A DNA stretch of 37,881 nucleotides from a virus (taxonomy: Duplodnaviria > Heunggongvirae > Uroviricota > Caudoviricetes), in the IMG/VR virus record IMGVR_UViG_2713896896_000009, positions 1 to 37,881 of that record. One strand, 5' to 3'. Each line of letters opens with the position of its first letter. Within the stretch, counting starts at the first letter, position 1. The notes under the pieces are model-generated. The model had not been told where the DNA came from, searched no databases, and was given only the letters and a program-made list of their open reading frames with translations. Shown here in pieces: positions 8,092 to 36,721 of this stretch. A program made the position numbers and the translations under genes.

Positions 8092-8097
8092 CCCTCC

Positions 8098-18148: not shown

Positions 18149-18776
18149 GGCATTCACCCGCGCGGATGAAACCTTCGAGGCTATCCGCGACAGCCTGAAT
18201 CAGCAGGCCATCAATAACATCGCCAGAAAACTGGCACAGGATTTACGCCGCGCCCAGCAGGCACGTATCCGGTCACAGAAAGCGCCGGGCGGGACCGCAT
18301 GGACACCACGCAGACGCCGCGTAACCCGGATACAGGAGCGCATTCGCTTTATCTGGAATAACGAAACACGCACGCTGAAAAACTGGCATCACGACACAGG
18401 GAAATACGGGCGAACCATTACCGGGTGGGATGAGGATAAAAACAATATCCGCACGTTTTACCGGGATGACATCGACCGTTTTCTGGAAATACGCACCCGG
18501 CGTATCAACCAGGACAGCACAAAGCACGTCCCCATGTTCGTAAAACTGCGCACCGCCCGTTACCTGAAAGCCCGCGCGGATGCCTCCGGTGTGACAGTGG
18601 GTTACAGCGGCGTGGCCGCACGTATTGCACGCGTTCATCAGTTCGGTGAACGCGATCAGGTTGCGCCGGGTATTTTCACCGATTACCCGGTACGTGAGCT
18701 GCTGGGTATCAGTCAGGCGGATGAGCGCCTGATTTATAACACGGTGCTGGGCCGGATTGCGGAGGCAGTACAGTGA
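18141..18776 (+). CDS. S: Tail completion / virion morphogenesis protein, P2 gpS-like
   Basis: Position between R and V; 211 aa, longer than P2 S as I recall it. Confidence 0.6.
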   Translation: MDKAFTRADETFEAIRDSLNQQAINNIARKLAQDLRRAQQARIRSQKAPGGTAWTPRRRRVTRIQERIRFIWNNETRTLKNWHHDTGKYGRTITGWDEDKNNIRTFYRDDIDRFLEIRTRRINQDSTKHVPMFVKLRTARYLKARADASGVTVGYSGVAARIARVHQFGERDQVAPGIFTDYPVRELLGISQADERLIYNTVLGRIAEAVQ

Positions 18777-19354
18777 ACGCAGAACTTATGAGACTGCTGA
18801 GCAATATCATCCGCACCGGGATCATCTCTGAAGTTGATGAGAAATCCTGGTGCGTGCGGGTCCTCAGCGGCGGACTGGAAACAGGCTGGTTGCGCTGGAA
18901 CACCACGCGCGCGGGAGCCTTCAATGTGTGGCTGCCGCCATCACCCGGCGAACAGGTGGTAATTGCCTGCATTGGCGGCAACCCGGAAACCGCCATGATA
19001 ATTGGCAGCCTGTGGAGTGATGCCAATCCGGCCCCCGGCAAAAGCCTGAAAGAAATCGTGGTCAGCGCGCCGGATGGCGCGGTGTTCCGCTACGACGCAG
19101 ACGCTGGCGCGCTGAGCGCCAGCGGCATGAAAACGGCCACTTTGCAGGCATCCGTCAGCGTGAAACTGGACACCCCCGTCGTGGAATGCACAGACCTTCT
19201 GAGAACGGCGACGCTTGACGTCACAAAAGGGGGAAAGATGAGCGGCAATATCACGCACAGCGGCGGCGACTTCACCTCCAACGGCGTGACCGTACACACG
19301 CACAAACATGGCGGTGTGGAAAGCGGTGGCAGCACAACAGGAGGCCCGCAGTGA
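18773..19354 (+). CDS. V: Baseplate spike/assembly protein, P2 gpV family
   Basis: LHTHKH-type C-terminus (VTVHTHKHGGVESGGSTTGGP) and IRTGII N-terminus parallel P2 V. Confidence 0.9.
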   Translation: MNAELMRLLSNIIRTGIISEVDEKSWCVRVLSGGLETGWLRWNTTRAGAFNVWLPPSPGEQVVIACIGGNPETAMIIGSLWSDANPAPGKSLKEIVVSAPDGAVFRYDADAGALSASGMKTATLQASVSVKLDTPVVECTDLLRTATLDVTKGGKMSGNITHSGGDFTSNGVTVHTHKHGGVESGGSTTGGPQ

Positions 19355-19701
19355 CAGCCCATTACACAGGAATGAACCCGGACGGAACGGGACACCTGAG
19401 CGATATGGCACACCTGAAGCAGTCCGTCAGGGACATTCTGACCACCCCGCTGGCCAGCCGGGTTATGCGACGGGAATATGGCAGTCTTGTCCCTGATTTG
19501 ATTGACGAACCCATGAATAACACTACGCGTCTGCAATGCATGAGCGCTGCTGTGATTGCACTGACACGATGGGAGCCACGCATTGCCCTGAATGCCATTG
19601 ATGTTGTCTGGAAGGCGGGGGGGCGCGCCGGGGTGACACTATCGGGTACTGTCATGCAGACCATGCAGAATGTTGAATTAACCATCACGCTGAGGGAGTA
19701 A
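19351..19701 (+). CDS. W: Baseplate wedge protein, P2 gpW (gp25-like)
   Basis: 116 aa at the W position with a GPW/gp25-like sequence. Confidence 0.88.
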   Translation: MTAHYTGMNPDGTGHLSDMAHLKQSVRDILTTPLASRVMRREYGSLVPDLIDEPMNNTTRLQCMSAAVIALTRWEPRIALNAIDVVWKAGGRAGVTLSGTVMQTMQNVELTITLRE

Positions 19702-19704
19702 ATC

Positions 19705-20601
19705 ATGCCTGCCGTTGACCTTTCACAGTTACCGGAACCCGCCATCATCGCGGAGCCTGATTTTGAGGCAATTCTGGCTGACACAAAGGCCATGATGATT
19801 GCGGCTTATCCGGCCGAACAGCGCGCCGCCGTCTCCGCAGCGCTGGAGCTGGAATCGGAACCCCTGAACGTTATCGCTCAAACCATGTCGTTTCGTGAAA
19901 TGCTGTTACGCCAGCGGGTCAACGAGGGCGCACGCGCCTGCATGTTAAGCCACAGCGCCGGGACAGACCTGGACAACCTCGCAGGTAATATGAACACAAA
20001 GCGCCTGGTTATCACTCCGGCAACGGATACCACCGACGCGGTGATGGAAAGCGACACCTCGCTGAGACTGCGGGCGCAGCGGGCGTACGACGGGCTGAGC
20101 GTTGCTGGCCCGTCAGGTGCATACGAGTATTTTGCCCGCAGTGCCAGCGGTCTGGTGCGTGATGCACGGGCTATCAGTCCCTCTCCGGCAAATGTGACGG
20201 TTTCCATCCTGTCCACTGAAGGCGACGGCACAGCAACGGAGGCATTGCTCAATACCGTTCGCACTGCTCTGAACGCGGAGGACACTCGCCCGGTGGCCGA
20301 CCGCCTGACCGTACAGAGCGCCAGAATCGTGACATGGCGGCTGAATGCAAAACTGTACTTTTACCCCGGCCCGGAATCCGAACCTATTCTGGCCGCTGCG
20401 GAATCGTCGTTCAGGAAGTGGCTGTCTGAGCAGGGACTTATCGGTCAGGACGTGGCGCTGTCAGCCATTGCTGCCGCACTTCATGTGCACGGCGTGCAAC
20501 GCGTGGAGATAATCGAACCCACCCAGAATATAGCCATCAGCGACATACAGGCGGCGCGTTGTGAGTCATTCACCATCAGCGAAGGTGGGCGCAATGAGTA
20601 A
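19705..20601 (+). CDS. J: Baseplate assembly protein, P2 gpJ family
   Basis: 298 aa at the J position. Confidence 0.88.
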   Translation: MPAVDLSQLPEPAIIAEPDFEAILADTKAMMIAAYPAEQRAAVSAALELESEPLNVIAQTMSFREMLLRQRVNEGARACMLSHSAGTDLDNLAGNMNTKRLVITPATDTTDAVMESDTSLRLRAQRAYDGLSVAGPSGAYEYFARSASGLVRDARAISPSPANVTVSILSTEGDGTATEALLNTVRTALNAEDTRPVADRLTVQSARIVTWRLNAKLYFYPGPESEPILAAAESSFRKWLSEQGLIGQDVALSAIAAALHVHGVQRVEIIEPTQNIAISDIQAARCESFTISEGGRNE

Positions 20602-21124
20602 TTCACTGTTACCACCATCAGCCAGCAATTTCATGCGTTGTGCCGAAGCCGTCGGAACGCGCATTACAGACATTCCGGTAGACCTCAACACGCTGTGGTC
20701 GCCGGACACATGCCCGGTGCATCTGCTGCCTTATCTCGCCTGGGCGTTTTCCGTTGACCGCTGGGACCGCAACTGGCCGGAGGAAACAAAACGCCAGGTG
20801 ATTCGCGATGCGTGGCTGATACACCGACACAAGGGGACCATCAGCGCACTGCGCCGGGCCATTGAGCCGCTGGGATACCTCATTCGCGTGTCTGAGTGGT
20901 GGGAGTTCGGCGGAGAACCGGGAACATTTACCGTTGAAGTCGGCACACTGGACAGTGGCGTGACGGAGGAAATGTATCTGGAAATGGAGCGGTTGATTGC
21001 TGATGCCCGCCCGGTCAGCCGCCACATGACAGGGCTGAATATCATTCAGGAAATCCCGGGGGATATTTTCGCAGCGGCGGCAACTTATGACGGTGAAGTT
21101 ATTACCATTTATCCAGGCGATTAA
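20594..21124 (+). CDS. I: Baseplate/tail protein, P2 gpI family
   Basis: ATG at 20594 overlapping the J stop; 176 aa. Confidence 0.82.
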   Translation: MSNSLLPPSASNFMRCAEAVGTRITDIPVDLNTLWSPDTCPVHLLPYLAWAFSVDRWDRNWPEETKRQVIRDAWLIHRHKGTISALRRAIEPLGYLIRVSEWWEFGGEPGTFTVEVGTLDSGVTEEMYLEMERLIADARPVSRHMTGLNIIQEIPGDIFAAAATYDGEVITIYPGD

Positions 21125-21126
21125 GC

Positions 21127-22851
21127 ATGAGCACCACAACACGAAAATTTAAAACCGTTATCACCGATACGGGTGCAAAAAAATTAGCACAGGCAGCCGC
21201 ACCAGATGGCAAACCCGTCCGCCTGACACATATGGCCGTGGGTGACGGCGGCGGTACTTTACCCACGCCAGACAGTAAGCAGACCCGTCTCGTGCATGAG
21301 GTGTGGCGACATACCGTTAATCGCGTCTTCCTGGACGCAACACATCAGAACCGCATTATTGCGGAGCTGGTTATTCCTCCAGAAACGGGCGGATTCTGGA
21401 TCCGGGAAATTGGTGTGTTTGATGAGCACGGCGATTTAATCGCGGTGGGCAATACTGCCGAAAGTTACAAGCCAACCGTTGCCGAAGGGTCCGGGCGTGC
21501 GCAAACATTTCGCACCATCCTGACCGTATCCAGCACGGCCACCGTGGCGCTTACCGTGGATAACACCATGGTGATGGCCACAGTGGATTACGTGGATGAC
21601 AAACTAAAAGAGCATGAACAGTCACGACGTCACCCGGATGCCTCGCTGACCGCAAAAGGCTTTACTCAGTTAAGCAGTGCGACCAACAGCACGTCTGAAA
21701 CGCTGGCTGCGACGCCAAAAGCTGTTAAGGCGGTAATGGATGAAACGAACAAGAAAGCGCCGCTGTCGAGTCCGGCACTCACCGGAACGCCAACCGCACC
21801 AACTGCGCCAAAGGGTACTAACAATACTCAGATAGCAAACACGGCGTTCGTTATGGCCGCGATTGCCGCACTTGTAGACTCATCACCTGACGCACTGAAT
21901 ACGCTGAACGAGCTGGCTGCGGCATTGGGCAATGACCCGAACTTTGCGACCACTATGACCAACGCGCTTGCGGGCAAGCAGCCGAAAGACGCCACCCTGA
22001 CGGCGCTGGCCGGGCTTGCTACTGCGGCAGACAGGTTTCCGTATTTTACAGGGAATGATACCGCCAGCCTGGCAACTCTGACAAAAGTCGGGCGGGATAT
22101 TCTGGCTAAAGCGACCGTTGCCTCCGTTATCGAATACCTCGGTTTACAAGAACTCGGCACGAGCGGAGAAAAAATACCGTTACTCAGTACAGAGAATACC
22201 TGGACTAATCGACAAACATTCAACGGCGGCCTTTCCGGGGAACTGTCCGGCAATGCCGCTACTGCGACAAAACTGAAAACAGTAAGAAATATTAATGGAG
22301 TTAAATTTGATGGTTCCAGCGATATAAATATTAATACGTTAGTATCTCGCAACCGTGTTACAGCATTAGGTGGAAGCGCAAAGGGTACGCCAGGTATCCA
22401 AATGTATGAAGCGTACAACAATGGATATCCTTTTACTTATGGCAATGTTCTTCATCTTACTGGCGTAGCGGCAGTTGGCGAAGGAGAGTTATTTATTGGG
22501 TGGAGTGGAACCAGCGGCGCTCATGCTCCGGCGTATATTCGCTCCCGACGAGATACCGCAGATGCTAACTGGTCTGGATGGGCGCAACTATATACAACCG
22601 CTCATAAACCATCAGCGGGAGATATTGGTGCATATACCAAAGCAGAATGCAATTCACGATTTATTACAGGTATTCGATTAGGTACAAAATCATCAGCGCA
22701 AACATGGAATGGTCCTGGCTGGGGCGATAAATCTGGTTACGTTGTTACAGGTTCCGTTAACTCAAACAAAGATGAACTTATTGATACAACACAGGCAAGG
22801 CCAGTGCAATATTGTATCAATGGCACCTGGTATAATGCAGGAAGTATTTAA
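21127..22851 (+). CDS. H: Tail fibre protein, P2 gpH family (constant N-terminus plus invertible C-terminal module)
   Basis: The N-terminal ~330 aa matches P2 H closely (FKTVITDTGAKKLA, HEQSRRHPDASLTAKGFTQLSSATNSTSETLAATPKAV); ends with a CINGTWYN motif. Confidence 0.93.
   Translation: MSTTTRKFKTVITDTGAKKLAQAAAPDGKPVRLTHMAVGDGGGTLPTPDSKQTRLVHEVWRHTVNRVFLDATHQNRIIAELVIPPETGGFWIREIGVFDEHGDLIAVGNTAESYKPTVAEGSGRAQTFRTILTVSSTATVALTVDNTMVMATVDYVDDKLKEHEQSRRHPDASLTAKGFTQLSSATNSTSETLAATPKAVKAVMDETNKKAPLSSPALTGTPTAPTAPKGTNNTQIANTAFVMAAIAALVDSSPDALNTLNELAAALGNDPNFATTMTNALAGKQPKDATLTALAGLATAADRFPYFTGNDTASLATLTKVGRDILAKATVASVIEYLGLQELGTSGEKIPLLSTENTWTNRQTFNGGLSGELSGNAATATKLKTVRNINGVKFDGSSDININTLVSRNRVTALGGSAKGTPGIQMYEAYNNGYPFTYGNVLHLTGVAAVGEGELFIGWSGTSGAHAPAYIRSRRDTADANWSGWAQLYTTAHKPSAGDIGAYTKAECNSRFITGIRLGTKSSAQTWNGPGWGDKSGYVVTGSVNSNKDELIDTTQARPVQYCINGTWYNAGSI
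22127..22154. repeat. gix-like crossover site (left) inside H
   Basis: ttatcgaatacctcggtttacaagaact is an imperfect inverted repeat of 25031-25058 and resembles Mu gix as I recall it; lies at the shared LGLQE junction. Confidence 0.7.
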
Positions 22852-22853
22852 TT

Positions 22854-23387
22854 ATGATGCATTTAAAAAATATTAAAGCAGGAAACCCCAAAACCGTAGA
22901 ACAATATGAATTAACACGACAATTTGGCGTTGTCTGGTTGTATTCTGATGACGATAGAAACTGGTATGAGGAACAGAAAAACTTTCAGGAAGATACAATA
23001 AAATTTGCTTACACAGCCGATGGAATCATTGTGGCTGTAGATAAGGATGTATCGACAATTAACCCTGAAGGTTTAAGCGTTATTGAGGTTCCCAATATTA
23101 CAGCCAATCGACGGGTCGATATTTCTGGTAACTGGATGTTCAAAGATGGCGCAGTGATAAAGCGGGAATATACCGAAGAAGAACAGAGACAACAGGCGGA
23201 AAATGAGAAGCAAAACCTGTTACAACTCGTCAGGGATAAAACCCAGCTATGGGATTCTCAGCTACGACTTGGAATTATTTCTGCTGAGAATAAACAAAAA
23301 TTGACCGAGTGGCTGCTCTACGCGCAGAAAGTGGAGTCTACGGATACCTCCGTCCTGCCAGTAACGTTTCCTGAACAACCAGAATGA
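22854..23387 (+). CDS. G: Tail fibre assembly chaperone, P2 gpG family
   Basis: 177 aa directly after H. Confidence 0.85.
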   Translation: MMHLKNIKAGNPKTVEQYELTRQFGVVWLYSDDDRNWYEEQKNFQEDTIKFAYTADGIIVAVDKDVSTINPEGLSVIEVPNITANRRVDISGNWMFKDGAVIKREYTEEEQRQQAENEKQNLLQLVRDKTQLWDSQLRLGIISAENKQKLTEWLLYAQKVESTDTSVLPVTFPEQPE

Positions 23388-23390
23388 GAG

Positions 23391-23408
23391 AAGGCCCGTT
23401 CGGGCCTT
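23391..23408. terminator. Hairpin between the convergent chaperone genes
   Basis: aaggcccg-ttc-gggcctt followed by a T-rich run on the plus strand. Confidence 0.5.
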
Positions 23409-23411
23409 TTC

Positions 23412-23948
23412 TTATTCTGGCTTTTGTGGCCATTCAGGATTTGCCGTATCCACGTGGCTAACCAGAACGCTGTAGCGTTCCCAGGCATCCAGCTGTGTAC
23501 GTTCCTCATCTGTTGCCAGATTCATCCTGACGGCACGTTCCAGCAGCTGGATGACTGATTCAGCTTCGGAAAGCAAAGCTGCTTTTTGTGATTCAGCCTG
23601 CTGTTGTAATTCATCTTCTGTATAGACTCTTTTAATTACAGCACCATCCTTAATCATCCAGTTGCCGGAAATATCAGCGCGTCGGTTTGCCGTAATATTG
23701 GGTAACTCGATCACACTCATTCCCTCTGGATTAATCAGGGATGCGTCTTTCTCTATGCAGCAAATAATACCATCCTGGTTATATGCCACTTTTAACGTGT
23801 CTGGCTGGAAATTTTTTTGTTCCTCATACCAGTTCTTACCTTCTTCCGACCATAACCAGACAACATCAAATTCTTTTGTAAGTTGATACTGTTCGATAGT
23901 TTTTGGATTTCCTGCTTTAATATTTTTTAAATGCATCATATTAAGCAC
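23412..23948 (-). CDS. Alternative tail fibre assembly chaperone (inverted copy)
   Basis: 178 aa, recognisably related to the plus-strand gpG copy ([14 protein letters not shown]...[22 protein letters not shown]). Confidence 0.82.
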
Positions 23949-25058
23949 GTCCTACATTGTACCACTGACCATTAATATATTTCTGAACAGGTGCATAAAC
24001 AGGCCATTCCCAGTCGTCATCAAAATTCCCGCCAGTGAGAACATATCCCGCCGGAAGTGTTCCACCTTCGCCACCCCATTTTATCCCGCTCTGGTTAGCT
24101 CCCATGCGAATGTCACGCACATAGCGGGAATCAAAATTTCCGTAATCTGATGGGTTAACACGTCCGGTAACATTTAACCCATGCCCAATTGAAACAGCAC
24201 CATTGGCGTTGTTAATAGTAAGTGGTCTTAAATTATTCCATGAGCCAAATCTGTCACCGGATGCAGTCAGCATAAAATAAGTATCTTTGCCGTCATTTCT
24301 GATAAAGAAACCATAATTGCCATAAGCAACGCGAAGACCATTGGCATAGAGCGATGTAATTTCACCTCTTGAACGGAGACCATAAGCGGAGCTGAGTGAT
24401 AATTCTTCCTGAGCGTCATAGTTTCCTGTCGCCCAGCGAATTACCCCGCCCTGTACTGTTTCGTGCCAGATAGTATCTCCTTCTCCACCACGAAACTTTC
24501 TGAGATATTTTTTGCCGCCTCTGGTGCCTGAACATAAGGCCGTAGACATATAGGCATTCTGGCTTCCACTATCCTGATTAATAGTTCCAGACATAGAATC
24601 GCCGTAACGGTTCCAGTCACGCCGCCAGCCAGGAGCATAGTTGTCCCCGTGGTTAATATAAGTAAATTGCGCGCTTGTAGCGCCCCCACCGCTTGATGTT
24701 GTTGGTGTGGTAATACGAATAGTCATTGCAGACTTTATTCCCATTACCTCAATAACAGCGCCAGCAAGATGAATATTGCCACAGCCCGTATCGGTAATAA
24801 GTTTATTATTGGCATATGACCAGGAGCCTTTGCACATCCAGTATGGGTGATTAAAAGCGCCTACCGAATCAAGCCACTCAATAAACTGAGCTGTAGTCCA
24901 GTTTCCACCTTCTGTGCTGTAAGAGCCGCTAAAAGCACGCGCTGCACTAATATTTTTTGCAAAAGTGTCTTTACCTGGAATATCTGCGCCGTTCTGGTTT
25001 TTCTGCAATGCGCCAGCGGCCTGATTTACCGTTTCCTGCAAACCGAGGTTTTTGATAA
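23941..25058 (-). CDS. Alternative tail fibre C-terminal module, currently in the silent orientation
   Basis: The minus-strand ORF begins at the gix site with the LGLQE junction and ends in an [11 protein letters not shown] motif; it has no N-terminal domain of its own. Confidence 0.75.
25031..25058. repeat. gix-like crossover site (right)
   Basis: gtttcctgcaaaccgaggtttttgataa; its reverse complement matches the left site at most positions. Confidence 0.7.
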
Positions 25059-25088
25059 TGGTCGTTTCTGGCCCACATGGCATGATTT

Positions 25089-25712
25089 GTGCTTTTGAGC
25101 GGGAGATTCAACGTGCTGATTGGCTATGTACGCGTGTCAACAAATGACCAGAACACGGATTTGCAACGCAATGCGCTCAATAGCGCAGGATGTGAACTGA
25201 TTTTTGAAGATAAAATCAGCGGAACAAAATCAGCCAGACCGGGATTGAAAAAACTGCTCAGAACGCTGTCAGAAGGCGATACGCTGGTTGTCTGGAAACT
25301 GGACAGGCTGGGCAGAAGCATGAAACACCTGATCACACTGATTGAGGAATTACGGGAAAAAGGTGTCAATTTTCGTAGTCTGACGGATTCAATTGATACC
25401 AGTACACCAATGGGGCGCTTTTTCTTCCACGTGATGGGCGCCCTGGCTGAAATGGAACGTGAATTAATTGTTGAGCGAACACTGGCCGGACTGGCAGCAG
25501 CACGCGCACAGGGGCGCATTGGTGGGCGTCGCCCGAAACTGACAAAAGAGCAACATGAGCAAATAGCAAGGTTGATTAAAAACGGCCATGACAGAAAACA
25601 ACTGGCCATAATTTACGGTATTGGTATATCGACGATTTATCGTTACCACCCCGCGGGAGAATCAACCGGAACAACAGATAAGACCAGAGGAAACAAAAAA
25701 CCGCTAATCTGA
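25089..25712 (+). CDS. Serine DNA invertase, Gin/Pin/Hin/Cin family
   Basis: LIGYVRVSTNDQNTDLQRNAL and the downstream resolvase fold with a C-terminal HTH; adjacent to the invertible segment. The start may instead be the in-frame GTG at 25113. Confidence 0.92.
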   Translation: MLLSGRFNVLIGYVRVSTNDQNTDLQRNALNSAGCELIFEDKISGTKSARPGLKKLLRTLSEGDTLVVWKLDRLGRSMKHLITLIEELREKGVNFRSLTDSIDTSTPMGRFFFHVMGALAEMERELIVERTLAGLAAARAQGRIGGRRPKLTKEQHEQIARLIKNGHDRKQLAIIYGIGISTIYRYHPAGESTGTTDKTRGNKKPLI

Positions 25713-25734: not shown

Positions 25735-26229
25735 TCAGAACAACCCTTTAACTGAACTGGTCGCGCTGTTAAGGGATGCTGTCACCTTATCTTTAAGGCC
25801 GGACAGCATATCACTGAACGCTGAGGATTGCAGGCGTTCCCGCAAATCCTCATCACAGCGTTCAAGGGTCAGGGAAAACTCTATCTTTTTCGCTTTCCCG
25901 TAGCGATCCAGTTCAGAGCGGGTCGTGCTCGTTTCGGTCAGAACATACATGCCGTAAATCTGCCCGACGCCATCAATCAGAGGCCACGGGCGCCCCATAT
26001 ACGCCTGCGTGGTCAGCAGCGACAGCGACACTTCGCCGCCTGTAATCTCAGGATAAAGCACGCCGGAAAGAACGATGCGATCATCACCTGCACCGATATA
26101 CTGCCAGCTTGCTGAACGGTTAACGCGCTCGTTTTTCACATGTCGCCAGCTTTTGTTTTGCTGTAACTGCTGATGCGGCAACGTGCGCAGCTCAAAAACA
26201 AACATGCCGTAGATCATCATCATGGCCAT
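25735..26229 (-). CDS. U: Tail protein, P2 gpU family
   Basis: 164 aa; parallels P2 U (WRHV.N.RVNR, LSGVLYPEITGG, WPLIDG.G.IYGMYV). Confidence 0.85.
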   Translation of the reverse strand: MAMMMIYGMFVFELRTLPHQQLQQNKSWRHVKNERVNRSASWQYIGAGDDRIVLSGVLYPEITGGEVSLSLLTTQAYMGRPWPLIDGVGQIYGMYVLTETSTTRSELDRYGKAKKIEFSLTLERCDEDLRERLQSSAFSDMLSGLKDKVTASLNSATSSVKGLF

Positions 26230-26235
26230 GACTCC

Positions 26236-29073
26236 TCAATCTTTATCGTAAAAACTGCCACGCCCGGCACGGGCACGCCGTTCCATTTCTGCCCTGACCA
26301 TTTCACCGACCAGTTTCGCCAGTTCGCGAGGATTCTGCGTAACAACGTTATGCAGATGGACATGAATTTCACCACCAAATCCGGGGATCGCAGCCTCCCG
26401 GCTGCGGGAAGATGCGGAAACGGGCGCAACTGGCGCACGTGCGGCCTCCACGACCGGACGGGAGCTTGCTGCAACAACAGGGGGCAGCGCCGGAGATAAC
26501 GGAGCCGGGGGCGCGGGAGTGATATTGATTGCAGGAAGAGCCTTGTTGCTCTGCGCAACCTTTCGCTCCTGCCACTCCCCACGAACAGCAAGCGCACGGG
26601 GCAAATTCTTAAAGACAATATCACCGGGGCCGATACGCTTTTTCGTCTCATCAACCAGCTTGCCTGTGTTATCTGCAATTTTGCTGAGCCTGCGCAGCGT
26701 GCCAGTGTTGTTGTCCGTGAGCGGCTTGTTGTCTTTAGGCTTATCGCCTCCGGTCCCTGTTTCCGCAGATTTCGGCGGATTGATTTTTGCCAGGTCCCCC
26801 TGAAGCAAAGCAACCTTGTCCTGAAGAATGGCCGCACGCTGCGCGTCTTCGATTTTCTTTCTCGCCCTTTCCGCTTCATCTGGAAGGACGCCAAGTTTTT
26901 CCAGTATCCATGCCAGCGTATCCAGCAGCATTTTTGCAGGCGTCAGGACAAGCTGTAACGCACCGCCAAGAACGTTGCCGAACACCTCGCCAGCACTGGT
27001 GCATTTATCCAGCGTTTCCTTGCTGGATTCCATCGGTGACAGCAGCGATGTAAACCAGTTAAAGACCTGAATCACGCCATCACGAACCAGTTCGAAAACA
27101 GGGCCAAACCGTTCAAAGGTTTCGCGCAACGGGGCCAGCCGCTCCATAATCCCGCTGAACACCCCGGCAAAAAATGCCCTGATTGGGTCCCAGTATTTCC
27201 AGATGAGAACGGCAGCTCCGGCAAGCGCAGCTACGATAAGACCGACCGGGCTGAACAACGCCCCGATAGCGCCTCCCAGTAAAGAGACGGAACCCGCCAC
27301 CATTCCCCACAGCGCTGGCAGGACCCTGACAGCATTCATTGATCCGGTCAGGAGGGAAAAACCAAGACGCAGTTTTGCCAGCGGGCCAGCAAGCACCCCA
27401 AGAGCCAGTGACAACGAGCCAACCGTTGCAGTCATTGCCAACAGCGCACCGCCTGCAATCAGTAGCTGGCGCGTCAGTGCCGGATGGGCCTGCGCCAGCT
27501 CCGTCACCTTTGAGACCACCCGAGTGAGCCACTGCGTGACAGAGCGCAGCGGACCGTCAATCAGATCCGCAATGCGGATACGCAGCCCCTCCCATGCACT
27601 GCCGAGTGATTTCAGGTCGCCATCAAGGTTATTAGCCATAACCTTTGCCGTGCGTTCAGCCTCACCGTGTGCGCCTTCAAGTTCTTTTCTCAGTTTGGGC
27701 AGAGAACCGTCACCTGCCGCATCAACGAGGGCCATAAATGACGTGAAGGCCTCTTCTCCGGCTATGTCCTTAAAGAACGATACCCGGTCAACTTCCCCGT
27801 ATTTGCGGGTGGCTTTATAAAGGTCGGCCAGCACATCCTCCATCGGGCGCATTTTGCCGTTCGCATCAGAGACAGCCACACCAAGCTCTTTCAGCGCCTC
27901 TGCTGCCGCCTTTGGCGGTGATGCCAGACGAGCAAGGCTGGCACGCATTGCCGTCCCGGCATCACTCCCTCTGATACCCATATTCGCCAGCACGCCCGCC
28001 ATCGCTGCGGCCTGCTCCAGCGATATTCCCAGCTTACCCGCCACCGGACCTGCATATTTCATGGTTTCGCCCAGCGCGCGAAGGTCGGTGTTAGTACGGG
28101 TAAACGCCGCAGTAAGTGTGTCACCGACCCGGTCCATCTGGTCAGCAGAGAGGCCGAACTGCGTCAGGATATTTGAGCCAATATCCGCCGTCTCGCCAAG
28201 GTCCATACCGCCAGCCGTTGCCATGCTCAGCACGCCGGGAAGCGCAGCCTGAATGGCTTCTGGTGTGAAGCCAGCCATAGCAAGAAATGCCTGCCCACTG
28301 GCGGCATCACTCGCAGTAAACTGCGTTTCAGAGCCGAGCTTTAGCGCCTGCTCACGCAGCGCCTTAAACTGCGGGCTGTTCTGGTCAATTCGCGTCAACG
28401 CCTGCACACGGGACATCTCTTTCCCGAATCCGATAGCGGGCTGCAAAAAACGCCCGGCAGCATAGCCGCCAGCCGCTGCCGCACCAGTTGCCAGCGCACC
28501 ACCCGTTTTCAGTTTTCCCGCTGTTTCCTGCGCGCGTGAATACTGCTCACGCGCCCGCGTTACACGCGCAAGCGCCTGTCGTTCGCGTTCAAGCTGGTTG
28601 TTGTACTGTTCGGTGCGTCTGATGGCCTGCTGGATGGTGTTATCGCTGCCTGTCAGGGAAATACCGTGGCGTTTAAGCTCTCCGCCAAGCTCCCGCATTT
28701 TCTGAATTTCCCGTGTGCGCGATTCATTCAGGCGTTCAAGCCGGGTGCTTAACTGCTGCATCAGCCTTTGTTGTTTTTCGCTGAGCACCGTACCCGTGCG
28801 TTGTAACTGATGAAGGGCGTTAAGCTGGCGTCGTGCTTTCACGATGCCAGCATCCGCTTTACTGACAGCATCGCGGGCGCGCTCAAATGAACGCGCCTGA
28901 CGCTCGAGATTTTTGATCGCCCCCTGCGTTCGCTGGATGGAGTCACCAAGCTGTCCCATCAGGCGGCGGGCGTTTTCGGCTGGCCGGGTCAGCCTGTCAA
29001 CAGCACTGAAGGCGACCCGAATGTCAAGAGTCTTCATCGTCTGCATTCCCACTGCGAAGTGCCGCCCGCTCAC
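26236..29073 (-). CDS. T: Tail tape-measure protein, P2 gpT family
   Basis: 945 aa, alanine/glycine-rich with TM-like central repeats, between E' and U. Confidence 0.9.
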   Translation of the reverse strand: MSGRHFAVGMQTMKTLDIRVAFSAVDRLTRPAENARRLMGQLGDSIQRTQGAIKNLERQARSFERARDAVSKADAGIVKARRQLNALHQLQRTGTVLSEKQQRLMQQLSTRLERLNESRTREIQKMRELGGELKRHGISLTGSDNTIQQAIRRTEQYNNQLERERQALARVTRAREQYSRAQETAGKLKTGGALATGAAAAGGYAAGRFLQPAIGFGKEMSRVQALTRIDQNSPQFKALREQALKLGSETQFTASDAASGQAFLAMAGFTPEAIQAALPGVLSMATAGGMDLGETADIGSNILTQFGLSADQMDRVGDTLTAAFTRTNTDLRALGETMKYAGPVAGKLGISLEQAAAMAGVLANMGIRGSDAGTAMRASLARLASPPKAAAEALKELGVAVSDANGKMRPMEDVLADLYKATRKYGEVDRVSFFKDIAGEEAFTSFMALVDAAGDGSLPKLRKELEGAHGEAERTAKVMANNLDGDLKSLGSAWEGLRIRIADLIDGPLRSVTQWLTRVVSKVTELAQAHPALTRQLLIAGGALLAMTATVGSLSLALGVLAGPLAKLRLGFSLLTGSMNAVRVLPALWGMVAGSVSLLGGAIGALFSPVGLIVAALAGAAVLIWKYWDPIRAFFAGVFSGIMERLAPLRETFERFGPVFELVRDGVIQVFNWFTSLLSPMESSKETLDKCTSAGEVFGNVLGGALQLVLTPAKMLLDTLAWILEKLGVLPDEAERARKKIEDAQRAAILQDKVALLQGDLAKINPPKSAETGTGGDKPKDNKPLTDNNTGTLRRLSKIADNTGKLVDETKKRIGPGDIVFKNLPRALAVRGEWQERKVAQSNKALPAINITPAPPAPLSPALPPVVAASSRPVVEAARAPVAPVSASSRSREAAIPGFGGEIHVHLHNVVTQNPRELAKLVGEMVRAEMERRARAGRGSFYDKD

Positions 29074-29242
29074 GCCAGCTAACCACTTCGCCGGGCGTCA
29101 TCATGAAGATTTCGGCGGGCGACCAGTTAAAAATAACGGCAATATCTGCCACAAAGTCTTCTATGTGCTCAAAGCACACAACCGTGATCAGGCTTCCGTC
29201 GCCTGTTCGTTCTTCCCGCCAGAGTCCGCACCGCTCAAAAAA
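29024..29242 (-). CDS. E' extension of the tail assembly chaperone, reached by -1 frameshift
   Basis: The -1 frame is open from the slippery heptamer to the stop at 29024 and overlaps the T start, as in P2 E+E'. Confidence 0.6.
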   Translation of the reverse strand, partial: FFERCGLWREERTGDGSLITVVCFEHIEDFVADIAVIFNWSPAEIFMMTPGEVVSWRERAALRSGNADDEDS

Positions 29243-29556
29243 TTTACGGCAACCACACATAACTGAATAAAGTCACAGGATGCCATTTTTTTGATCGTCA
29301 CTTCATCCAGTCGCGGTGATGTCACGCGTGACAACAGCGTAAACATGGATTCCGCTTTCAGATTCAGCACATCAGACAGCGACAGACCACGCAGGGATCC
29401 AGCCTGCTCAATAGCCCCGGTGATCTCCACATACGTGATTTTTTCGTCGCCTCGCTCAATTGGCTGGGTAAGTTTTACGCCGCGCTCGCTGGTTTCTTTC
29501 GCAGTATCAGCAACCACCACAGCGTTTTCAGTATTGGTATTTTTCGTCTCTTTCAT
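29188..29556 (-). CDS. E: Tail assembly chaperone, P2 gpE family
   Basis: 122-aa ORF between FII and T on the same strand. Confidence 0.7.
   Translation of the reverse strand: MKETKNTNTENAVVVADTAKETSERGVKLTQPIERGDEKITYVEITGAIEQAGSLRGLSLSDVLNLKAESMFTLLSRVTSPRLDEVTIKKMASCDFIQLCVVAVNFLSGADSGGKNEQATEA
29236..29242 (-). other. Programmed -1 frameshift slippery heptamer TTTTTTG
   Basis: Minus-strand T-TTT-TTG within E; slipping -1 enters the E' frame. Same heptamer type as P2 E/E'. Confidence 0.55.
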
Positions 29557-29610
29557 CAGAAAACTCCTTTCAGTCAGAGGCGACGCACTGCGCCGCCTGC
29601 ATATTACTTA

Positions 29611-30123
29611 TCAGCCGAGCCCGAGCGCGGAGCGGATGCGGTCGGGTACAATGTCCTTGCCATCCTTCCGGTAGATGTGGTTCACCAGGTCAATTTCCCA
29701 CACCGGACGATCGTTAATACTCAGCTTGTAGTAGGTGTTTTTGACAGCGTAAGTGTGTGACGTGGCTTCGCCCTGTTTGGCCTCCCCCATATCAATTTCC
29801 GTCACACGCCCGCGCATCTCGATTTCATACAGGTCGCTTTCTGCATCGGTGTAGTATTCACCCGCAAAACGCAGCAGCGTGCCGTCCATTGTTCCGCCAT
29901 ATTTAAGGAACAGCGCACGAACGGCGCCCCCCATGACAAAACTCGCATCAAGCGCGGAATCGTCCAGACCGAGGTCGATACTCACCGCCCCCATCATGCC
30001 ACCACCACGATAGCTGTCGGTTTTACGCGTCAGTTTAGGCGGGGTGACAGACGTCACCTTACCCACTTCATTTTCACCATCCACAAACAGCGTAAAAAAA
30101 CGAAGATGTTTTGGTACGGCCAT
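29611..30123 (-). CDS. FII: Tail tube protein, P2 gpFII family
   Basis: 170 aa at the expected position. Confidence 0.88.
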   Translation of the reverse strand: MAVPKHLRFFTLFVDGENEVGKVTSVTPPKLTRKTDSYRGGGMMGAVSIDLGLDDSALDASFVMGGAVRALFLKYGGTMDGTLLRFAGEYYTDAESDLYEIEMRGRVTEIDMGEAKQGEATSHTYAVKNTYYKLSINDRPVWEIDLVNHIYRKDGKDIVPDRIRSALGLG

Positions 30124-31307
30124 TAAGCACCTCCAAGCACCGCAAATGCAGGACCAAAGAACTCATCAGTGAACGCCTGGTAAAGCTCCATATCTTCCAG
30201 CGGAGGAACGGGCGTATATTTATAGCGAATACGCACGCGCCCCTGTCGCAATTCTGTGGTGCTGTTATCCACGATGTCATACCAGCACGATGCGCCAATC
30301 AGTTTCCCGGCAGTAACCAGCGAATCAAGTTTTGCCCTCATAGCGCTGATAACATCCTTCACGTTCGCAGGCGTCAGTGGACTGTCGATGGTTTCAAACT
30401 GCGCTTCCGCAACCGTGTCAGCCAGCACCTGTGCGGTTCGGGTATACACCTCAAAAATGTAGGCGTTCGTTTCCGGCGTACGGTTACCCCAGAAGCGGAA
30501 CCCGTTGCGGCGAATGATGGTTGTGATTTCTTTGTTGTTGAGGCTGTTGGCATCGCTGTCTTCGGCCTGCAACGACCAGAACACATGCCTGGACATCCCC
30601 AGCACATTTTTGACCGGAACGTTGGACAGCGATTTGTGCCAGCCCTGCTCATGGTCAATGTACGCACGAAGGCCGCACGCATAGGCTGGCGCGGGGAAAA
30701 CCTCATTCTCGCCACTTTTCGGGTTGTAAGCGATGAAGTCCGGCCACAGGAGCATCAGCTCGCGTTCGTTGAATTTTTCACGGTATGCAATGGCTTCAGC
30801 CATCGTGTTACAGCCATGACAGGAGGCATACACAAATGCGCGCAGTTTACCTGCAATCACGCACAGGGATTTTGTCACCGCCTCCGTGTCCAGCCCCGGC
30901 GCGGCCAGAATACGCGGACGGTATCCGATGCTTTCATCCTGCTCTGCAACAAGCAGCGCATACATCCCCGTATAGCTGCCGTCGGATTCAGAACCACCGA
31001 TAACCAGTTGATCCTGTGTTTTTCCGTCTTCTTCTTTGTGTTCAGCCACGCGAACGACGATCACCTTTGTGCTCACCTGGTCTGCAATGGGTTTCAGCGC
31101 ACGGTACAGCGTCCCCGTTGTCCCGCATTTTCCCAGCACGTCATTGACGCGGGTCACTAATGCAGGCTTGTTCAGCGGGAACAGCTTCGCGTCCGCATCG
31201 TCCGCCGTTGCCACGATACCGATAACGCTGGAATCAACGTCGTTAATTGCTGTTACCAGGTCGGTACTTTCCGTAACGCGGGCGCCATGAAAGCGAGTTT
31301 CACTCAT
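30123..31307 (-). CDS. FI: Tail sheath protein, P2 gpFI family
   Basis: 394 aa; start of the minus-strand tail operon. Confidence 0.92.
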   Translation of the reverse strand: MSETRFHGARVTESTDLVTAINDVDSSVIGIVATADDADAKLFPLNKPALVTRVNDVLGKCGTTGTLYRALKPIADQVSTKVIVVRVAEHKEEDGKTQDQLVIGGSESDGSYTGMYALLVAEQDESIGYRPRILAAPGLDTEAVTKSLCVIAGKLRAFVYASCHGCNTMAEAIAYREKFNERELMLLWPDFIAYNPKSGENEVFPAPAYACGLRAYIDHEQGWHKSLSNVPVKNVLGMSRHVFWSLQAEDSDANSLNNKEITTIIRRNGFRFWGNRTPETNAYIFEVYTRTAQVLADTVAEAQFETIDSPLTPANVKDVISAMRAKLDSLVTAGKLIGASCWYDIVDNSTTELRQGRVRIRYKYTPVPPLEDMELYQAFTDEFFGPAFAVLGGA

Positions 31308-31464
31308 AGTTCCAGCCCCTTGTATCCGTTAAATGATTCGGCAACAATCATCACCCACCACGCGCGTAATCTCATCCCTGCGCCGTTCTTGCCGCCCGGC
31401 GACAACAAAAAGCAGTAACCACGCCCGCACACACATGCGACCATGCTGCACAGGGAGGGAGCCG
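31308..31464. promoter_or_regulatory. Divergent intergenic region between FI and D (late promoters expected)
   Basis: 157 bp between divergent starts; no Ogr-type TGT-N12-ACA site could be confidently placed. Confidence 0.3.
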
Positions 31465-32574
31465 ATGATTGACACCACCATGCAACTGTTCAACCAGAGT
31501 ACTGACCCCGTGAAGATGCCTGATTTTGATATTCTCGCGGAGGGGAAAACGCTGTCCGGTGTGGCAGAACGCCTGATGAGCCTGTCACTGACCGACAACC
31601 GGGGATTTGAAGCAGACCAGCTAACCATCACGCTGGATGATGCTGATGGTCAGTTGCAGTTGCCGCCACGGGGCGCTCGCCTGACGGTTCTCATTGGCTG
31701 GAAAGGTGAACCGCTGACAGAAAAAGGCACTTACATTGTTGATGAAATTGCTCATGAAGGACCGCCCGACAGACTGACCATTTCAGCCAGAAGCGCAGAT
31801 TTTCGGGATGAATTTAACGTCAAGCGCGAAGTATCCTGGCATGATGTGACCGTTGAACGCGTGGTGTCTGCAATTGCTCACCGATACGGCCTGAAACCGC
31901 AAATCAGCGAAATGCTGATGGATATTGAAATCGACCACGCTGACCAGACCGAAGAAAGCGACATGTCCTTCCTTACACGCATGGCGGAAATGCTGGGCGC
32001 AATCACCACGGTAAAAAGCGGTAATCTGTTATTCATCATGCCAGGTGGTGGCGTGAACGCGCAGGGAAAACCATTACCATCGTTTGCCATCACACGCAGC
32101 AGTGGCGATCGCCATCAGTTCCGCATTGCTGACCGCGAAGCGTATACGGGGGTACGCGCTTACTGGCTTGATCTTAATTACGGGAAAAAGAAAAAAGTCA
32201 GCGTGAAACGCCGTAAACCGCCAAAACCCAAAAAGGAGAAAAGTAGCAGCCGTGAAGGTGATTATATGGAAGGCGCGGAAGGCAATGTGTTTGTGTTACG
32301 CAAGACTTATCAGAACGAGCAGGCAGCAAGACGCGCAGCGGCGGCAAAGTGGCAGCAGCTACAACGCGGAGCCGCAGCGTTCTCCATCACGCTGGCGCGT
32401 GGACGTGCAGAACTCTATCCCGAAATGCATGGCACGGTGACAGGCTTCAAAAGTGACATCGACAATCAGGACTGGATTATTGCAAAAGCCGAGCACACCA
32501 TTGATAACAGTGGCTTTACCACGCAGCTTGAACTTGAAGCAAAAATCCCGGAATGGATAGCAGAAACAGAGTGA
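31465..32574 (+). CDS. D: Tail/late control protein, P2 gpD family
   Basis: ATG at 31465 after GGGAGGGA; LSLTDNRG.EADQLTITL and the FI-proximal position parallel P2 D. Confidence 0.88.
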   Translation: MIDTTMQLFNQSTDPVKMPDFDILAEGKTLSGVAERLMSLSLTDNRGFEADQLTITLDDADGQLQLPPRGARLTVLIGWKGEPLTEKGTYIVDEIAHEGPPDRLTISARSADFRDEFNVKREVSWHDVTVERVVSAIAHRYGLKPQISEMLMDIEIDHADQTEESDMSFLTRMAEMLGAITTVKSGNLLFIMPGGGVNAQGKPLPSFAITRSSGDRHQFRIADREAYTGVRAYWLDLNYGKKKKVSVKRRKPPKPKKEKSSSREGDYMEGAEGNVFVLRKTYQNEQAARRAAAAKWQQLQRGAAAFSITLARGRAELYPEMHGTVTGFKSDIDNQDWIIAKAEHTIDNSGFTTQLELEAKIPEWIAETE

Positions 32575-32799: not shown

Positions 32800-34302
32800 A
32801 TGAACAAAAAGCTGTATTTATTCCCAGACTCAAACATTTTTCTACAATGCAAGGCCTTGACGCAGGTAAATTTTTCCGAGATTACTGCTTGTGATGAAGT
32901 ATGTATCATTATTACAAGGCCCATTCAGCAAGAGATTGACCGCCAGAAAGGGCAAGGTAATTCCCGCCTATCCAAAAAAGCAAGGAAGGCTGCTAGCCTA
33001 TTTAATCAAGTAGTTGATTCAACTGACATGACTCTTGTTATTCGTGAACGCTCGCCGCGAGTTTTTCTTACCATGGATCTAAGCCTGAAACCATGTGAAC
33101 AGTTATCTGAACAATTGGATTATCAGGAGGCCGACGATCGTTTTGTTGGTATTGCGGCAGGGTATTGCGCTGACGATCCAGATTCGGAGGTGGCAATCAT
33201 TACCAATGATAGCGGTCCACGTTTTTCAGCAATAAAACATAATATAATCTGCTATAAAGTGCCTTCTTCATGGTTGCTTCCTGCTGAGCCAGATGAAAAG
33301 GATAAACAAATTAAATTGCTGGAAGCTAAGCTGAAGCAATTCACTCAGTCTATGCCCGATTTCAGCATTAAAGCAGCCGATGACGAGCAATTAAATATTG
33401 TACTTCCTTATTATACAGCTTTATCTGAATATGAAGTTGATAATTTGCTTTGTCAACTAACGGATGCATTCCCATTGGTTACAAACTTTGACAATGAACA
33501 AACTACCTCACAATCACTAGAAAAAATCATCAAGTCATTTAGTCAACAGGAGTATTTCCCTGTATCAGCAGATGATATTTCTCTTTATAAAGAAAAACAT
33601 TATCCACTTTGGAAAAAGCAGTGTGAAGAAATACTGAAAAACTGTCATACTCATATTAATCCGAAGGCAATAAAATACCCGCTGTCGTTTTTATTACAAA
33701 ACACAGGTTATACTATCGCTGAACGTGCTGTGGTAACATTTACAGCAAAAGGAGATTTTCGTCTGTGTGGATTTAATTGGGAGATAATGGAAGAGCTGAC
33801 TGAAAGCAAAAGGATTGACCTACCTTCAGCCCCTACCGCACCCAAAGGAAAATGGCGTAGTGTATGTGGCGTAACAGAAAGAATGCCTTACGCTTGGGGA
33901 GCTTTGGAAACACCGCTATCCAGTATAATTTCAAAAGAAATTGGTCCTTTGTTATCTCTTACTCCAACAGAAAGGGATAAAAACGATTTTTATTATAAAG
34001 AAAAGAGAAATGTGCCAGTTCAAGTTGTATCACTGGAATGCGAAGAGTGGCGTCATCAAGTCAAAGAAGAAATATTCCCGTTGTTCGTATATACAGCCAA
34101 CAAACCAAAGAAAGTGAATGGTGCAATTGAGGTAAGAGTTGATGCAAATAACCTTACCAATCCGGTCATTAAAACATTTAAATTAAAAATAACTATAGAA
34201 GAACATAGTGCATTTTCAACCATAACAGAAATGGTGCAGACATACATTCAAGAGCAGAAGAAAAGACAGAAAAGTTCTATTAGCGCACAAATCAAAACAT
34301 GA
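32800..34302 (+). CDS. 500-aa protein with N-terminal PIN-like nuclease domain and unassigned C-terminal region
   Basis: Clean ORF with GAGG RBS. The N-terminus shows the PIN arrangement of acidic residues (LFPDSN, DEVCIII, ADDRFVG, IITNDSG). The gene is visibly AT-rich relative to flanking phage genes and is inserted between D and ogr. Confidence 0.6.
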   Translation: MNKKLYLFPDSNIFLQCKALTQVNFSEITACDEVCIIITRPIQQEIDRQKGQGNSRLSKKARKAASLFNQVVDSTDMTLVIRERSPRVFLTMDLSLKPCEQLSEQLDYQEADDRFVGIAAGYCADDPDSEVAIITNDSGPRFSAIKHNIICYKVPSSWLLPAEPDEKDKQIKLLEAKLKQFTQSMPDFSIKAADDEQLNIVLPYYTALSEYEVDNLLCQLTDAFPLVTNFDNEQTTSQSLEKIIKSFSQQEYFPVSADDISLYKEKHYPLWKKQCEEILKNCHTHINPKAIKYPLSFLLQNTGYTIAERAVVTFTAKGDFRLCGFNWEIMEELTESKRIDLPSAPTAPKGKWRSVCGVTERMPYAWGALETPLSSIISKEIGPLLSLTPTERDKNDFYYKEKRNVPVQVVSLECEEWRHQVKEEIFPLFVYTANKPKKVNGAIEVRVDANNLTNPVIKTFKLKITIEEHSAFSTITEMVQTYIQEQKKRQKSSISAQIKT

Positions 34303-35399: not shown

Positions 35400-35732
35400 A
35401 TGGCATTAATCAAATGTCCTGAATGCCAGAAAGAGGTGAGCGATTCAGCATTGTATTGCCCTGCTTGTGGTAAACAACTACAAAAACTTAAGCGTTCATT
35501 TTTTGGACGGATCATTAAGTGGGTTTTTATATTATTTAATATTTTTATGATCTATACGCTTTTAGTTGGACTAGGAGGCACTAGTGAAATAATAAATAAT
35601 GCCACATCCGATGCCGAAAAAACCGGTGCAGTTATTGGTACAGGCTTAGGTTTAATTACCATTGGAAGCTTATGGGTTATTGGTGATATCATCATCGGAA
35701 TTTTAGTATTTCTTACTAAACCAAAGGGATAA
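35400..35732 (+). CDS. Zinc-ribbon membrane protein (N-terminal CPxC...CPxC, two TM segments)
   Basis: MALIKCPECQKEVSDSALYCPACGK followed by two hydrophobic helices; AT-rich; AAGGAGG RBS. Confidence 0.6.
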   Translation: MALIKCPECQKEVSDSALYCPACGKQLQKLKRSFFGRIIKWVFILFNIFMIYTLLVGLGGTSEIINNATSDAEKTGAVIGTGLGLITIGSLWVIGDIIIGILVFLTKPKG

Positions 35733-35736
35733 TAAA

Positions 35737-36630: not shown

Positions 36631-36664
36631 TATTAAATCATGTGGCTTAGCCACAATCACAGAC

Positions 36665-36696
36665 AACACAAAGCCCGTGAAAACGGGCTTTGTGTT
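36665..36696 (+). terminator. Rho-independent terminator after the two-gene cassette
   Basis: Stem aacacaaagcccgt / acgggctttgtgtt, loop gaaa, followed by a T-containing tract. Confidence 0.6.
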
Positions 36697-36702
36697 ATCT
36701 GT

Positions 36703-36721
36703 ACTCGAAAATGTGGTCACT
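36703..36721. repeat. Candidate attR core (gtggtcactgcgtggacac)
   Basis: 17 of 19 identical to 11-29 in direct orientation; lies between the last AT-rich cargo gene and host flk. Confidence 0.35.

Follow-up and report, generated by a model that had tools for sequence, protein, structure and literature searches.

The tail-fibre locus described here is, with a probability of about 0.9, a functional invertible cassette of the G-segment/C-segment type, carried by an Escherichia albertii prophage that is P88-like and belongs to the P2 family. The window, i.e., the whole stretch of 37,881 nucleotides that was analysed, is an E. albertii contig containing this prophage (Xuanwuvirus). The cassette belongs to the well-known class of DNA-flipping switches of the phage Mu/P1 type, of which it is an ordinary and apparently working example. 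The constant N-terminus of the fibre lies outside the segment, whereas two alternative C-termini, each with its own chaperone, lie inside it and can both be fused to the constant part in frame. No tRNA gene was detected in the window, and a PADLOC search of the neighbouring cargo genes gave no matches.

The tail-fibre gene H (21127-22851, plus strand) crosses the left recombination site and encodes a 574-aa product. Its constant N-terminal part, up to the crossover dinucleotide (21127..22139, plus strand), carries the Pfam domains Phage_tail_fib and Phage_fiber_2 and is the equivalent of Sc in Mu and P1. The initial annotation had this gene share its first ~330 codons with P2 H; the homology holds, whereas the count has to be raised to 342 codons. 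Residues 7-342 of H align with residues 4-383 of P2 H at 68-70% identity, a figure that counts a 44-residue gap corresponding to an extra repeat copy in P2. The last ~140 aligned residues are nearly identical, and the likeness ends directly after the motif LGLQE. Identity to the fibre N-termini of phages P88 and 520873 reaches 85-91%. The variable module now fused to H, termed Sv (22153..22851, plus strand), makes up the last 232 residues and ends in INGTWYNAGSI. Over its C-terminal ~105 aa, it matches the tips of Mu S’ and P1 S’ at 75% identity, its first 149 residues share 79% identity with the beginning of the P1 variable parts, and its best match among solved structures is the Mu tail fibre S/S’ (chain 8ju3).

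The silent alternative module, Sv’ (23941..25032, minus strand), comprises 363 residues after LGLQE, includes a Pfam Gp34_trimer domain and is held in a second fibre C-terminal ORF of 380 aa (23941-25083, minus strand). Over its length, Sv’ shows 45-47% identity to Mu/P1 S’, the top value among the characterised fibres compared here, and its last 64 residues share only 41% identity with those of Sv. Each module is followed by its own assembly chaperone. The Sv chaperone (22854..23387, plus strand; Pfam Caudo_TAP, E=6.7e-34) is of the U’ type, with 79-80% identity to Mu U’ and P1 U’, and the Sv’ chaperone (23412..23939, minus strand; Caudo_TAP, E=7.6e-34), silent in the present orientation, is of the U/G type, with 77-79% identity to Mu U/P1 U and 74% to P2 G. 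The two chaperones are 58% identical to each other, and the 175-aa form of the second one, starting from ATG, exactly matches NCBI WP_059273736.1. A GC-rich hairpin of 19 pairs (23379..23420) with a terminator-like match stands between these convergent genes and, given its position, likely closes the fibre operon in either orientation. The ORF map and the Pfam searches thus bear out the proposed pair of fibre modules with separate chaperones in opposite orientations. The predicted INGxWYN endings (INGTWYN in Sv, INGQWYN in Sv’) and the LGLQE encoded at both junctions were also found.

H had further been said to cross a site whose inverted partner lies 2.9 kb downstream, and such a repeat is indeed present, with 29-nt arms at 22124-22152 and 25033-25061 that are 83% complementary and spaced by 2880 nt. 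The gix-like nature of the sites is upheld, their length being 26 bp in the canonical form and not the 28 bp first given. The left site (22127..22152, plus strand), TTATCGAATACCTCGGTTTACAAGAA, lies inside codons 334-342 of H (VIEYLGLQE), with its central dinucleotide TC at 22139-22140. The right site (25033..25058, minus strand), whose reverse complement is TTATCAAAAACCTCGGTTTGCAGGAA, is inverted relative to the left one, and its centre reads GA, i.e., TC on the opposite strand. When aligned, these imperfect palindromes differ at 4 of 26 positions, share the same TC core and have a longest exact common stretch of ~10 nt. Compared with phage Mu gix, the left site has three mismatches and the right site two, the TC core being common to all; the flanks of the right site are homologous to those of Mu gixR. 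A degenerate pattern fitting both sites matches twice in the 37.9 kb (0.00 matches expected from 100 shuffles) and also finds Mu gixL/gixR and both P88 sites. No third site was detected in the window by pattern search, even with three mismatches allowed, and a search with the core 12-mer adds a single, unrelated match at 17559. A shufflon, which involves at least three sites and more than two arrangements as in one P2-like prophage of EPEC and in plasmid R64, was therefore rejected.

Just outside the segment, 54 bp beyond the right site, starts the gene of a serine DNA invertase of the Gin/Cin/Pin/Hin group (25113..25712, plus strand; 199 aa). Its start is the GTG at 25113 (MLIGYVRVSTNDQ, as in the NCBI annotation) and not the mechanical-ORF start at 25089. 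The protein combines a catalytic Resolvase domain (PF00239, E=2e-51) with a C-terminal HTH_7 domain (PF02796, E=3e-13), in agreement with its earlier placement in the Gin/Pin family. It shares 72% identity with Gin, 76% with Cin, to which its N-terminal half is closest, and 86% with the P88 invertase (85-86% across P88-like phages). It is nearer to invertases than to resolvases, the best solved structure being Gin 4m6f (E=6.4e-90), compared with 3e-32 for gamma-delta resolvase. Residues Y5, R7, S9, D64, R65 and R68 are invariant in its alignment with Gin and Cin, and the ORF is intact. Positions H106 and M114 (Gin numbering), whose mutation confers Fis independence, are wild type. In NCBIfam, the invertase has no match above the cut-off, and the fibres and chaperones have no match.

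A probable Fis-dependent recombinational enhancer (25131..25202, plus strand) lies within the invertase gene, at its 5’ end. This candidate aligns without gaps to the annotated enhancer of P1 cin (gene positions 19-90) at 81% identity, a conservation that is inseparable from that of the encoded protein. Two Fis-like G...C 15-mers, at 22-36 and 71-85 in gene numbering, occupy the same places as those of Mu gin, whereas in P1 cin only the second one scored.

Inversion of the segment in silico gives an uninterrupted, in-frame fibre of 705 aa, so that each of the two orientations has an open product, of 574 aa or 705 aa, as had been anticipated. The predicted 705-aa protein has an exact match in a protein collection, originating from the independent ENA assembly ERZ27259809. 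In this assembly, contig L003 follows the window forward from 18335 to 22152 and then in reverse from 25058 to 22056, at 99.9% identity. The overlap at the turn measures 26 bp and is exactly the site, the left site being the breakpoint. The junction reads TTATCGAATACC-TC-GGTTTGCAGGAA, i.e., the left half of the left site joined to the right half of the right site, which narrows the crossover to the interval bounded by site positions 9 and 20. Unflipped junctions were found in this sample as well, the left one at the end of L003 and the right one on another contig (L012). The sample may represent two mixed strains, or two prophage copies fixed in opposite orientations, rather than one switching population. 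The case named at the outset as contrary to a switch, a single orientation together with a broken invertase frame, is contradicted by the presence of both orientations in this public assembly and by the intact ORF.

For the strain of the window itself, the evidence of switching is indirect and comes from the contig breaks of an isolate assembly, three contigs of which were compared with the window and are 100% identical to it. In this assembly, the segment forms a separate contig of 2872 bp (22157-25028) and the next contig begins at 25101. Two further contigs of relatives have the constant region at both ends, a signature of mixed orientation. More widely, 74 loci of relatives have both sites, and among these loci identical pairs of modules are found arranged one way or the other (13 versus 9, 9 versus 5, and 3 versus 2). 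In 175 metagenome and viral loci retrieved by the junction of the constant region with the left half-site, a relative of Sv at 90% identity or more appears on one short contig only and Sv’ on none; the orientation counts were thus made on related module pairs. No phage, metagenome or viral contig in the survey combined Sv with Sv’, and an exact-pattern scan of a one-genome-per-species collection for the same junction returned nothing.

The architecture could be a fossil, inherited by a prophage in which the segment no longer inverts, the orientations found in databases being old events fixed in separate lineages. The window is present in one orientation only, its sites differ at 4 of 26 positions, no sigma-70-like candidate was found by a promoter scan upstream of the invertase, and the flipped contig is a few SNPs away from the window and so comes from a different strain. 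However, the sites of Mu, P1 and P88 are imperfect to a similar degree, the invertase retains all catalytic residues in an intact ORF, and flipped and unflipped junctions are found together in a single sample. Moreover, the window-identical assembly breaks at both sites, and since an exact repeat of ~10 nt is too short to mislead an assembler, these breaks imply reads that disagree. A switch that has ceased to work is consequently very unlikely. A mere artefact of assembly, with no real flipped molecule behind L003, is extremely improbable. This contig is partly chimeric, with the constant region of H inverted at its two ends, but a build at k=141 (the contig name begins with k141_) needs real k-mers that run from the constant region through a hybrid site into the beginning of Sv’, which a 26-bp imperfect repeat is unable to generate. 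In addition, the hybrid site is the exact predicted product of recombination, and across dozens of independent contigs from relatives, a given pair of modules is repeatedly seen in one order as well as in the other.

The segment might also be flipped by an invertase encoded elsewhere, for example in another prophage, or by RecA, and not by the adjacent gene. Gin, Cin, Pin and Hin can replace each other, and such invertases form very common clusters in Escherichia, the 90% cluster by itself counting 241 members. Nevertheless, the adjacent gene is intact and placed exactly like gin in Mu, and the crossover lies at mid-site, as expected of a serine invertase, which makes another enzyme very unlikely. 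As a main route, RecA was rejected because the repeats (26 bp, ~10 nt exact) are too short for efficient recombination.

The cassette in which the adjacent invertase acts has the same layout as the G segment of Mu (Gin; gixL/gixR; S-U / S’-U’): constant fibre, site, module with chaperone, convergent chaperone with module, site, and then an invertase in the same direction, whose leader is homologous as well. Unlike Mu, a transposable phage, the phage here is a P2-family myovirus. The constant part is P2 H-like with 342 codons versus about 170 in Mu, and the C-terminal tail of the invertase is longer (199 versus 193 aa). The C segment of P1 (Cin; cixL/cixR) is a switch of the same type, but it is longer (4.2 kb), has longer inverted repeats and a TT core in cix, and has cin on the other side. 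Phages P88, 520873 and 503458 (Xuanwuvirus) carry H, two chaperones, a second fibre fragment and an annotated DNA invertase, in the same gene order in P88 and 520873. Their sites are nearly identical to those of the locus, and their operon from tail sheath to U lies on the opposite strand, as here. They differ in that the host is here E. albertii, the best phage record having ~83% DNA identity over 70% of the region length. In P2-like prophages of EPEC E2348/69, inversion was confirmed experimentally by sequencing and PCR (PMC4272514). Phage P2 itself is homologous up to LGLQE, and its H gene contains, at the same codons, an orphan gix-like site with three mismatches to gix. This is the only such site in the H-G stretch examined (L009), and P2 is annotated with neither a second fibre module nor an invertase, so its fibre is taken to be fixed.

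H is transcribed from the late tail operon with its first 342 codons fixed, the receptor-binding C-terminus and the next chaperone being those of whichever module faces the constant part. By analogy with Gin, Cin and Hin, the switch would operate as follows. Dimers of the invertase would bind the two inverted 26-bp gix-like sites, which, on supercoiled DNA, would pair with the Fis-bound enhancer that lies within the initial ~90 bp of the gene for the invertase. Ser9 would cleave both sites at the central TC, and half of the tetramer would turn by 180 degrees before the ends are rejoined. The 2.9-kb segment would then be inverted, and Sv with its U’-type chaperone exchanged for Sv’ with its U-type chaperone, an exchange that is in frame because both modules start with the site-encoded LGLQE. 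Flipping probably changes the host range, as the homology to S/S’ of Mu and P1 suggests. A lysogen population would hence release two types of phages with different fibre tips, as a form of host-range bet-hedging.

It is a speculative and rather unlikely idea that Sv’ confers a receptor specificity not yet described, that the invertase acts in trans on other gix-like sites of E. albertii, or both. For Sv’, the idea comes from its ~45% identity to the characterised Mu/P1 fibres and its T4 gp34-like trimerisation domain. As for the invertase, Fin of Fels-2 reportedly acts in trans on Salmonella hix; a similar action here would link the change of the phage’s host range with phase variation in genes of the host.

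Beyond correct annotation, the finding matters little. The predicted fibre protein of such a prophage depends on the orientation that was assembled, and switches of this kind break up short-read assemblies and yield chimeric contigs, as seen here. They also double the receptor repertoire to be considered in host prediction or fibre engineering of P2-like phages. The locus should be labelled as an invertible host-range cassette, and the 380-aa minus-strand “gene” as the silent half of the fibre gene; one public record calls this ORF a sugar ABC transporter permease.

The fibre region of the window carries the same device as the Mu G/Gin, P1 C/Cin and e14 P/Pin systems. The tail-fibre gene H (21127-22851, 574 aa) encodes P2-type fibre N-terminal domains recognized by Pfam and is followed by a Caudo_TAP chaperone gene (22854-23387, plus strand). 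The latter is convergent with a second Caudo_TAP gene (23412-23939, minus strand), next to which the ORF map and Pfam place a second fibre C-terminus (23941-25083, minus strand). Thus, the two opposed fibre modules, each with its own chaperone, that the initial annotation had described are indeed present, as are the INGxWYN motif near both fibre ends and the LGLQE residues encoded at both junctions, both recovered in the ORF map. A GC-rich 19-pair hairpin separating the chaperone genes would stop transcription in either orientation. H aligns with P2 H from H residue 7 to 342, one copy of a 44-residue repeat being missing in H, and the similarity stops at LGLQE, whose codons lie in the gix-like site. 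The start shared with P2 H before the site is crossed is therefore confirmed, but it reaches residue 342 rather than about 330 codons. As a whole, the initial annotation is correct save for small numerical details.

The expressed tip (Sv, the variable module currently fused to H) shares 75% identity with the S' tips of Mu and P1 over its last ~105 residues, and its chaperone 79-80% with U'. The silent module Sv' displays 45-47% identity to S' over its length and contains a gp34-type trimerisation domain, and its chaperone belongs to the U / P2 G type (74-79% identity). Compared with each other, the tips are only 41% identical over their last 64 residues, the chaperones 58%. In public annotation, the silent fibre half (23941-25083, minus strand) appears as a stand-alone 380-aa gene, and one NCBI record of this exact sequence, WP_237760943.1, wrongly bears the name 'sugar ABC transporter permease'. 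The ORF overshoots the recombination site by 25 nt and begins at a chance ATG that lacks an evident ribosome-binding site.

The segment is bordered by inverted arms of 29 nt (22124-22152 and 25033-25061), 83% complementary and 2880 nt apart according to a repeat finder. Trimmed to canonical length, they give site L (22127-22152, TTATCGAATACC-TC-GGTTTACAAGAA) and site R (25033-25058, other strand, TTATCAAAAACC-TC-GGTTTGCAGGAA), so that the inverted partner proposed earlier exists, with a canonical site of 26 bp instead of 28 bp. Once aligned, both sites prove gix-like, with three (L) and two (R) mismatches to Mu gix (TTATCCAAAACCTCGGTTTACAGGAA) and a shared central TC, whereas the P1 cix sites are farther from Mu gix, with 5-7 mismatches and a TT core. 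A degenerate pattern covering both sites matches the window only at L and R, none being expected from 100 shuffles, and also recovers the two P88 sites as well as Mu gixL and gixR. Site searches of the window gave two sites only, which excludes a shufflon-type arrangement with multiple sites. Phage P2 itself harbours a single orphan gix-like site in gene H (TTATCGAATATCTCGGTTTACAGGAA, positions 1124-1149 of the H-G stretch examined, L009), with three mismatches to Mu gix, at the codons EYLGLQE where H of the window is cut. No partner gix-like site was found in this stretch and no invertase is listed in the P2 annotation; the orphan site apparently represents either the remnant of an invertible cassette or a landing site for one.

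The serine invertase expected just outside the segment was identified by its Resolvase and HTH_7 domains (Pfam). Alignment with Gin and Cin, together with the NCBI protein WP_059273737.1, sets its start at the GTG at 25113 (MLIGYVRVSTNDQ) for a length of 199 aa. It shares 72% identity with Gin, 76% with Cin and 85-86% with the invertases of phages P88 and 520873, and residues Tyr5, Arg7, Ser9, Asp64, Arg65 and Arg68 are invariant in the alignment. Its top relative among solved structures is Gin (4m6f, E=6e-90), resolvases being far behind. The leader and the ribosome-binding region have homologous counterparts in Mu gin; a promoter scan found no promoter-like site for the invertase. The annotated P1 cin enhancer aligns to 25131-25202 at 81% identity with no gap, and this interval contains, as does gin, Fis-like G...C 15-mers at positions 22-36 and 71-85 of the gene. 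In the Hin system, recombination sites of 26 bp are accompanied by an enhancer with two 15-bp Fis sites (PMC3798978). This interval is a putative recombinational enhancer, the assignment remaining qualified because the same DNA codes for the protein's most conserved part; by analogy, the invertase would be Fis-dependent.

Both orientations occur naturally. Reversal of 22140-25045 in silico joins the constant part and the silent module into an open 705-aa fusion, in line with the earlier prediction that either orientation is in frame. An exact-sequence look-up retrieved this very protein from a public collection, with ENA assembly ERZ27259809 as source, the sole source of the 574-aa form being the window's own assembly. 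The contig encoding the 705-aa protein (L003) aligns at 99.9% identity to 18335-22152 forward and to 25058-22056 reversed, the 26-bp site being exactly what the two alignments have in common. Its junction, TTATCGAATACC-TC-GGTTTGCAGGAA, combines the left half of L with the right half of R, as expected of an exchange at the central dinucleotide; differences between L and R bracket the crossover to site positions 9-20. At its end, L003 carries the unflipped left junction as reverse complement, and another contig of the sample (L012) carries the unflipped right junction. These are k=141 contigs; therefore, every junction is spanned by real sequence and both orientations exist in the sample, as one switching population or, less likely, as two co-resident variants. 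Isolate assembly GCA_053700355.1 is 100% identical to the window across the three contigs compared, with the segment as a separate 2872-bp contig (22157-25028) and an adjoining contig starting at 25101. As exact repeat between the sites is limited to about 10 nt, mixed segment orientations among the reads would be the simplest explanation for breaks at both sites.

Scanning metagenome and viral contigs for the junction of the constant region with the left half-site gave 175 loci, 74 of which possess a second inverted site 2.6-4.1 kb away. After clustering of proximal and distal modules at 90% identity, the same module pairs were found in both orders among these relatives (13 vs 9, 9 vs 5, 3 vs 2 and 2 vs 1). 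In IMGVR_UViG_2568526230_000001 (L092) and IMGVR_UViG_2531839193_000006 (L127), whose outer flanks are 100% identical over 166-200 nt, the H constant region stands in inverted orientation at both segment ends as in L003, a chimeric assembly signature showing that orientations were mixed in the sequenced culture. Across the 175 loci, the junction is occupied by at least 16 module clusters (90% identity), which combine into 29 different ordered pairs; thus, the site also bounds frequent horizontal exchange of fibre modules.

From what is established for Gin and Hin (PMC3798978; PMC3575834), invertase dimers on the two sites would synapse, on supercoiled DNA, at an enhancer occupied by Fis, and the active-site serine would introduce staggered 2-bp double-strand cuts. 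One subunit pair would then rotate by 180 degrees before religation, which identical TC cores would permit only in the inverted configuration. The two fibres would bind different surface receptors, so that a lysogen would release a mixed phage population and flipping would change host range.

Every testable defining feature of the invertase family and cassette type was found here. The device already figures in the annotation of P88-group phages of the P2 family, and inversion of the fibre segment has been demonstrated by sequencing and PCR for P2-like prophages of EPEC E2348/69 (PMC4272514); only the host species and the particular module pairing are new. Escherichia albertii contig BBVE01000012.1 (GCA_001514555.1) is 100% identical to the window, which includes P2-family prophage genes for integrase, replication protein A, capsid, lysis, baseplate and tail, with a repressor-sized ORF adjoining the integrase and portal- and terminase-sized ORFs, all named by size. 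The closest phage and E. coli DNA records reach ~83% identity across ~70% of the region; therefore, the window is a relative of those elements and no copy. As no tRNA gene was found in the whole window, the attachment site was not located.

The fibre-region order (fibre gene, chaperone, inverted chaperone, inverted fibre fragment, 'DNA invertase', tail genes) is that of the annotated Xuanwuvirus phages P88 and 520873. Past the invertase, U, tape measure, E/E', tube and sheath genes follow on the minus strand (25735-31307), whereas in P2 the FI-FII-E-T-U-D genes are co-directional with H. The D-like gene (31333-32574) stays on the plus strand. P88 shares this arrangement, which is therefore a feature of this phage group. 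Just past the D-like gene, near the probable right prophage end, a gene at 32800-34302 (plus strand) encodes a protein of 500 aa whose N-terminus has a PIN_4 domain; this protein may be cargo and matched no known defence family in PADLOC. Beyond the prophage, the plus strand at 35400-37881 encodes a protein with a zinc ribbon, a 297-aa VasI-like protein of type VI secretion (E=3e-25) and a third protein with a weak, below-threshold match to Mu-like GemA. Two genes of the early region (7132-8409, plus strand), which had no PADLOC matches, form a plasmid-type partition module inside an integrated P2-like phage: one product is a 319-aa actin-like ATPase of the ParM/StbA type (E=7e-82), the other a 103-aa plasmid stability protein resembling StbB.
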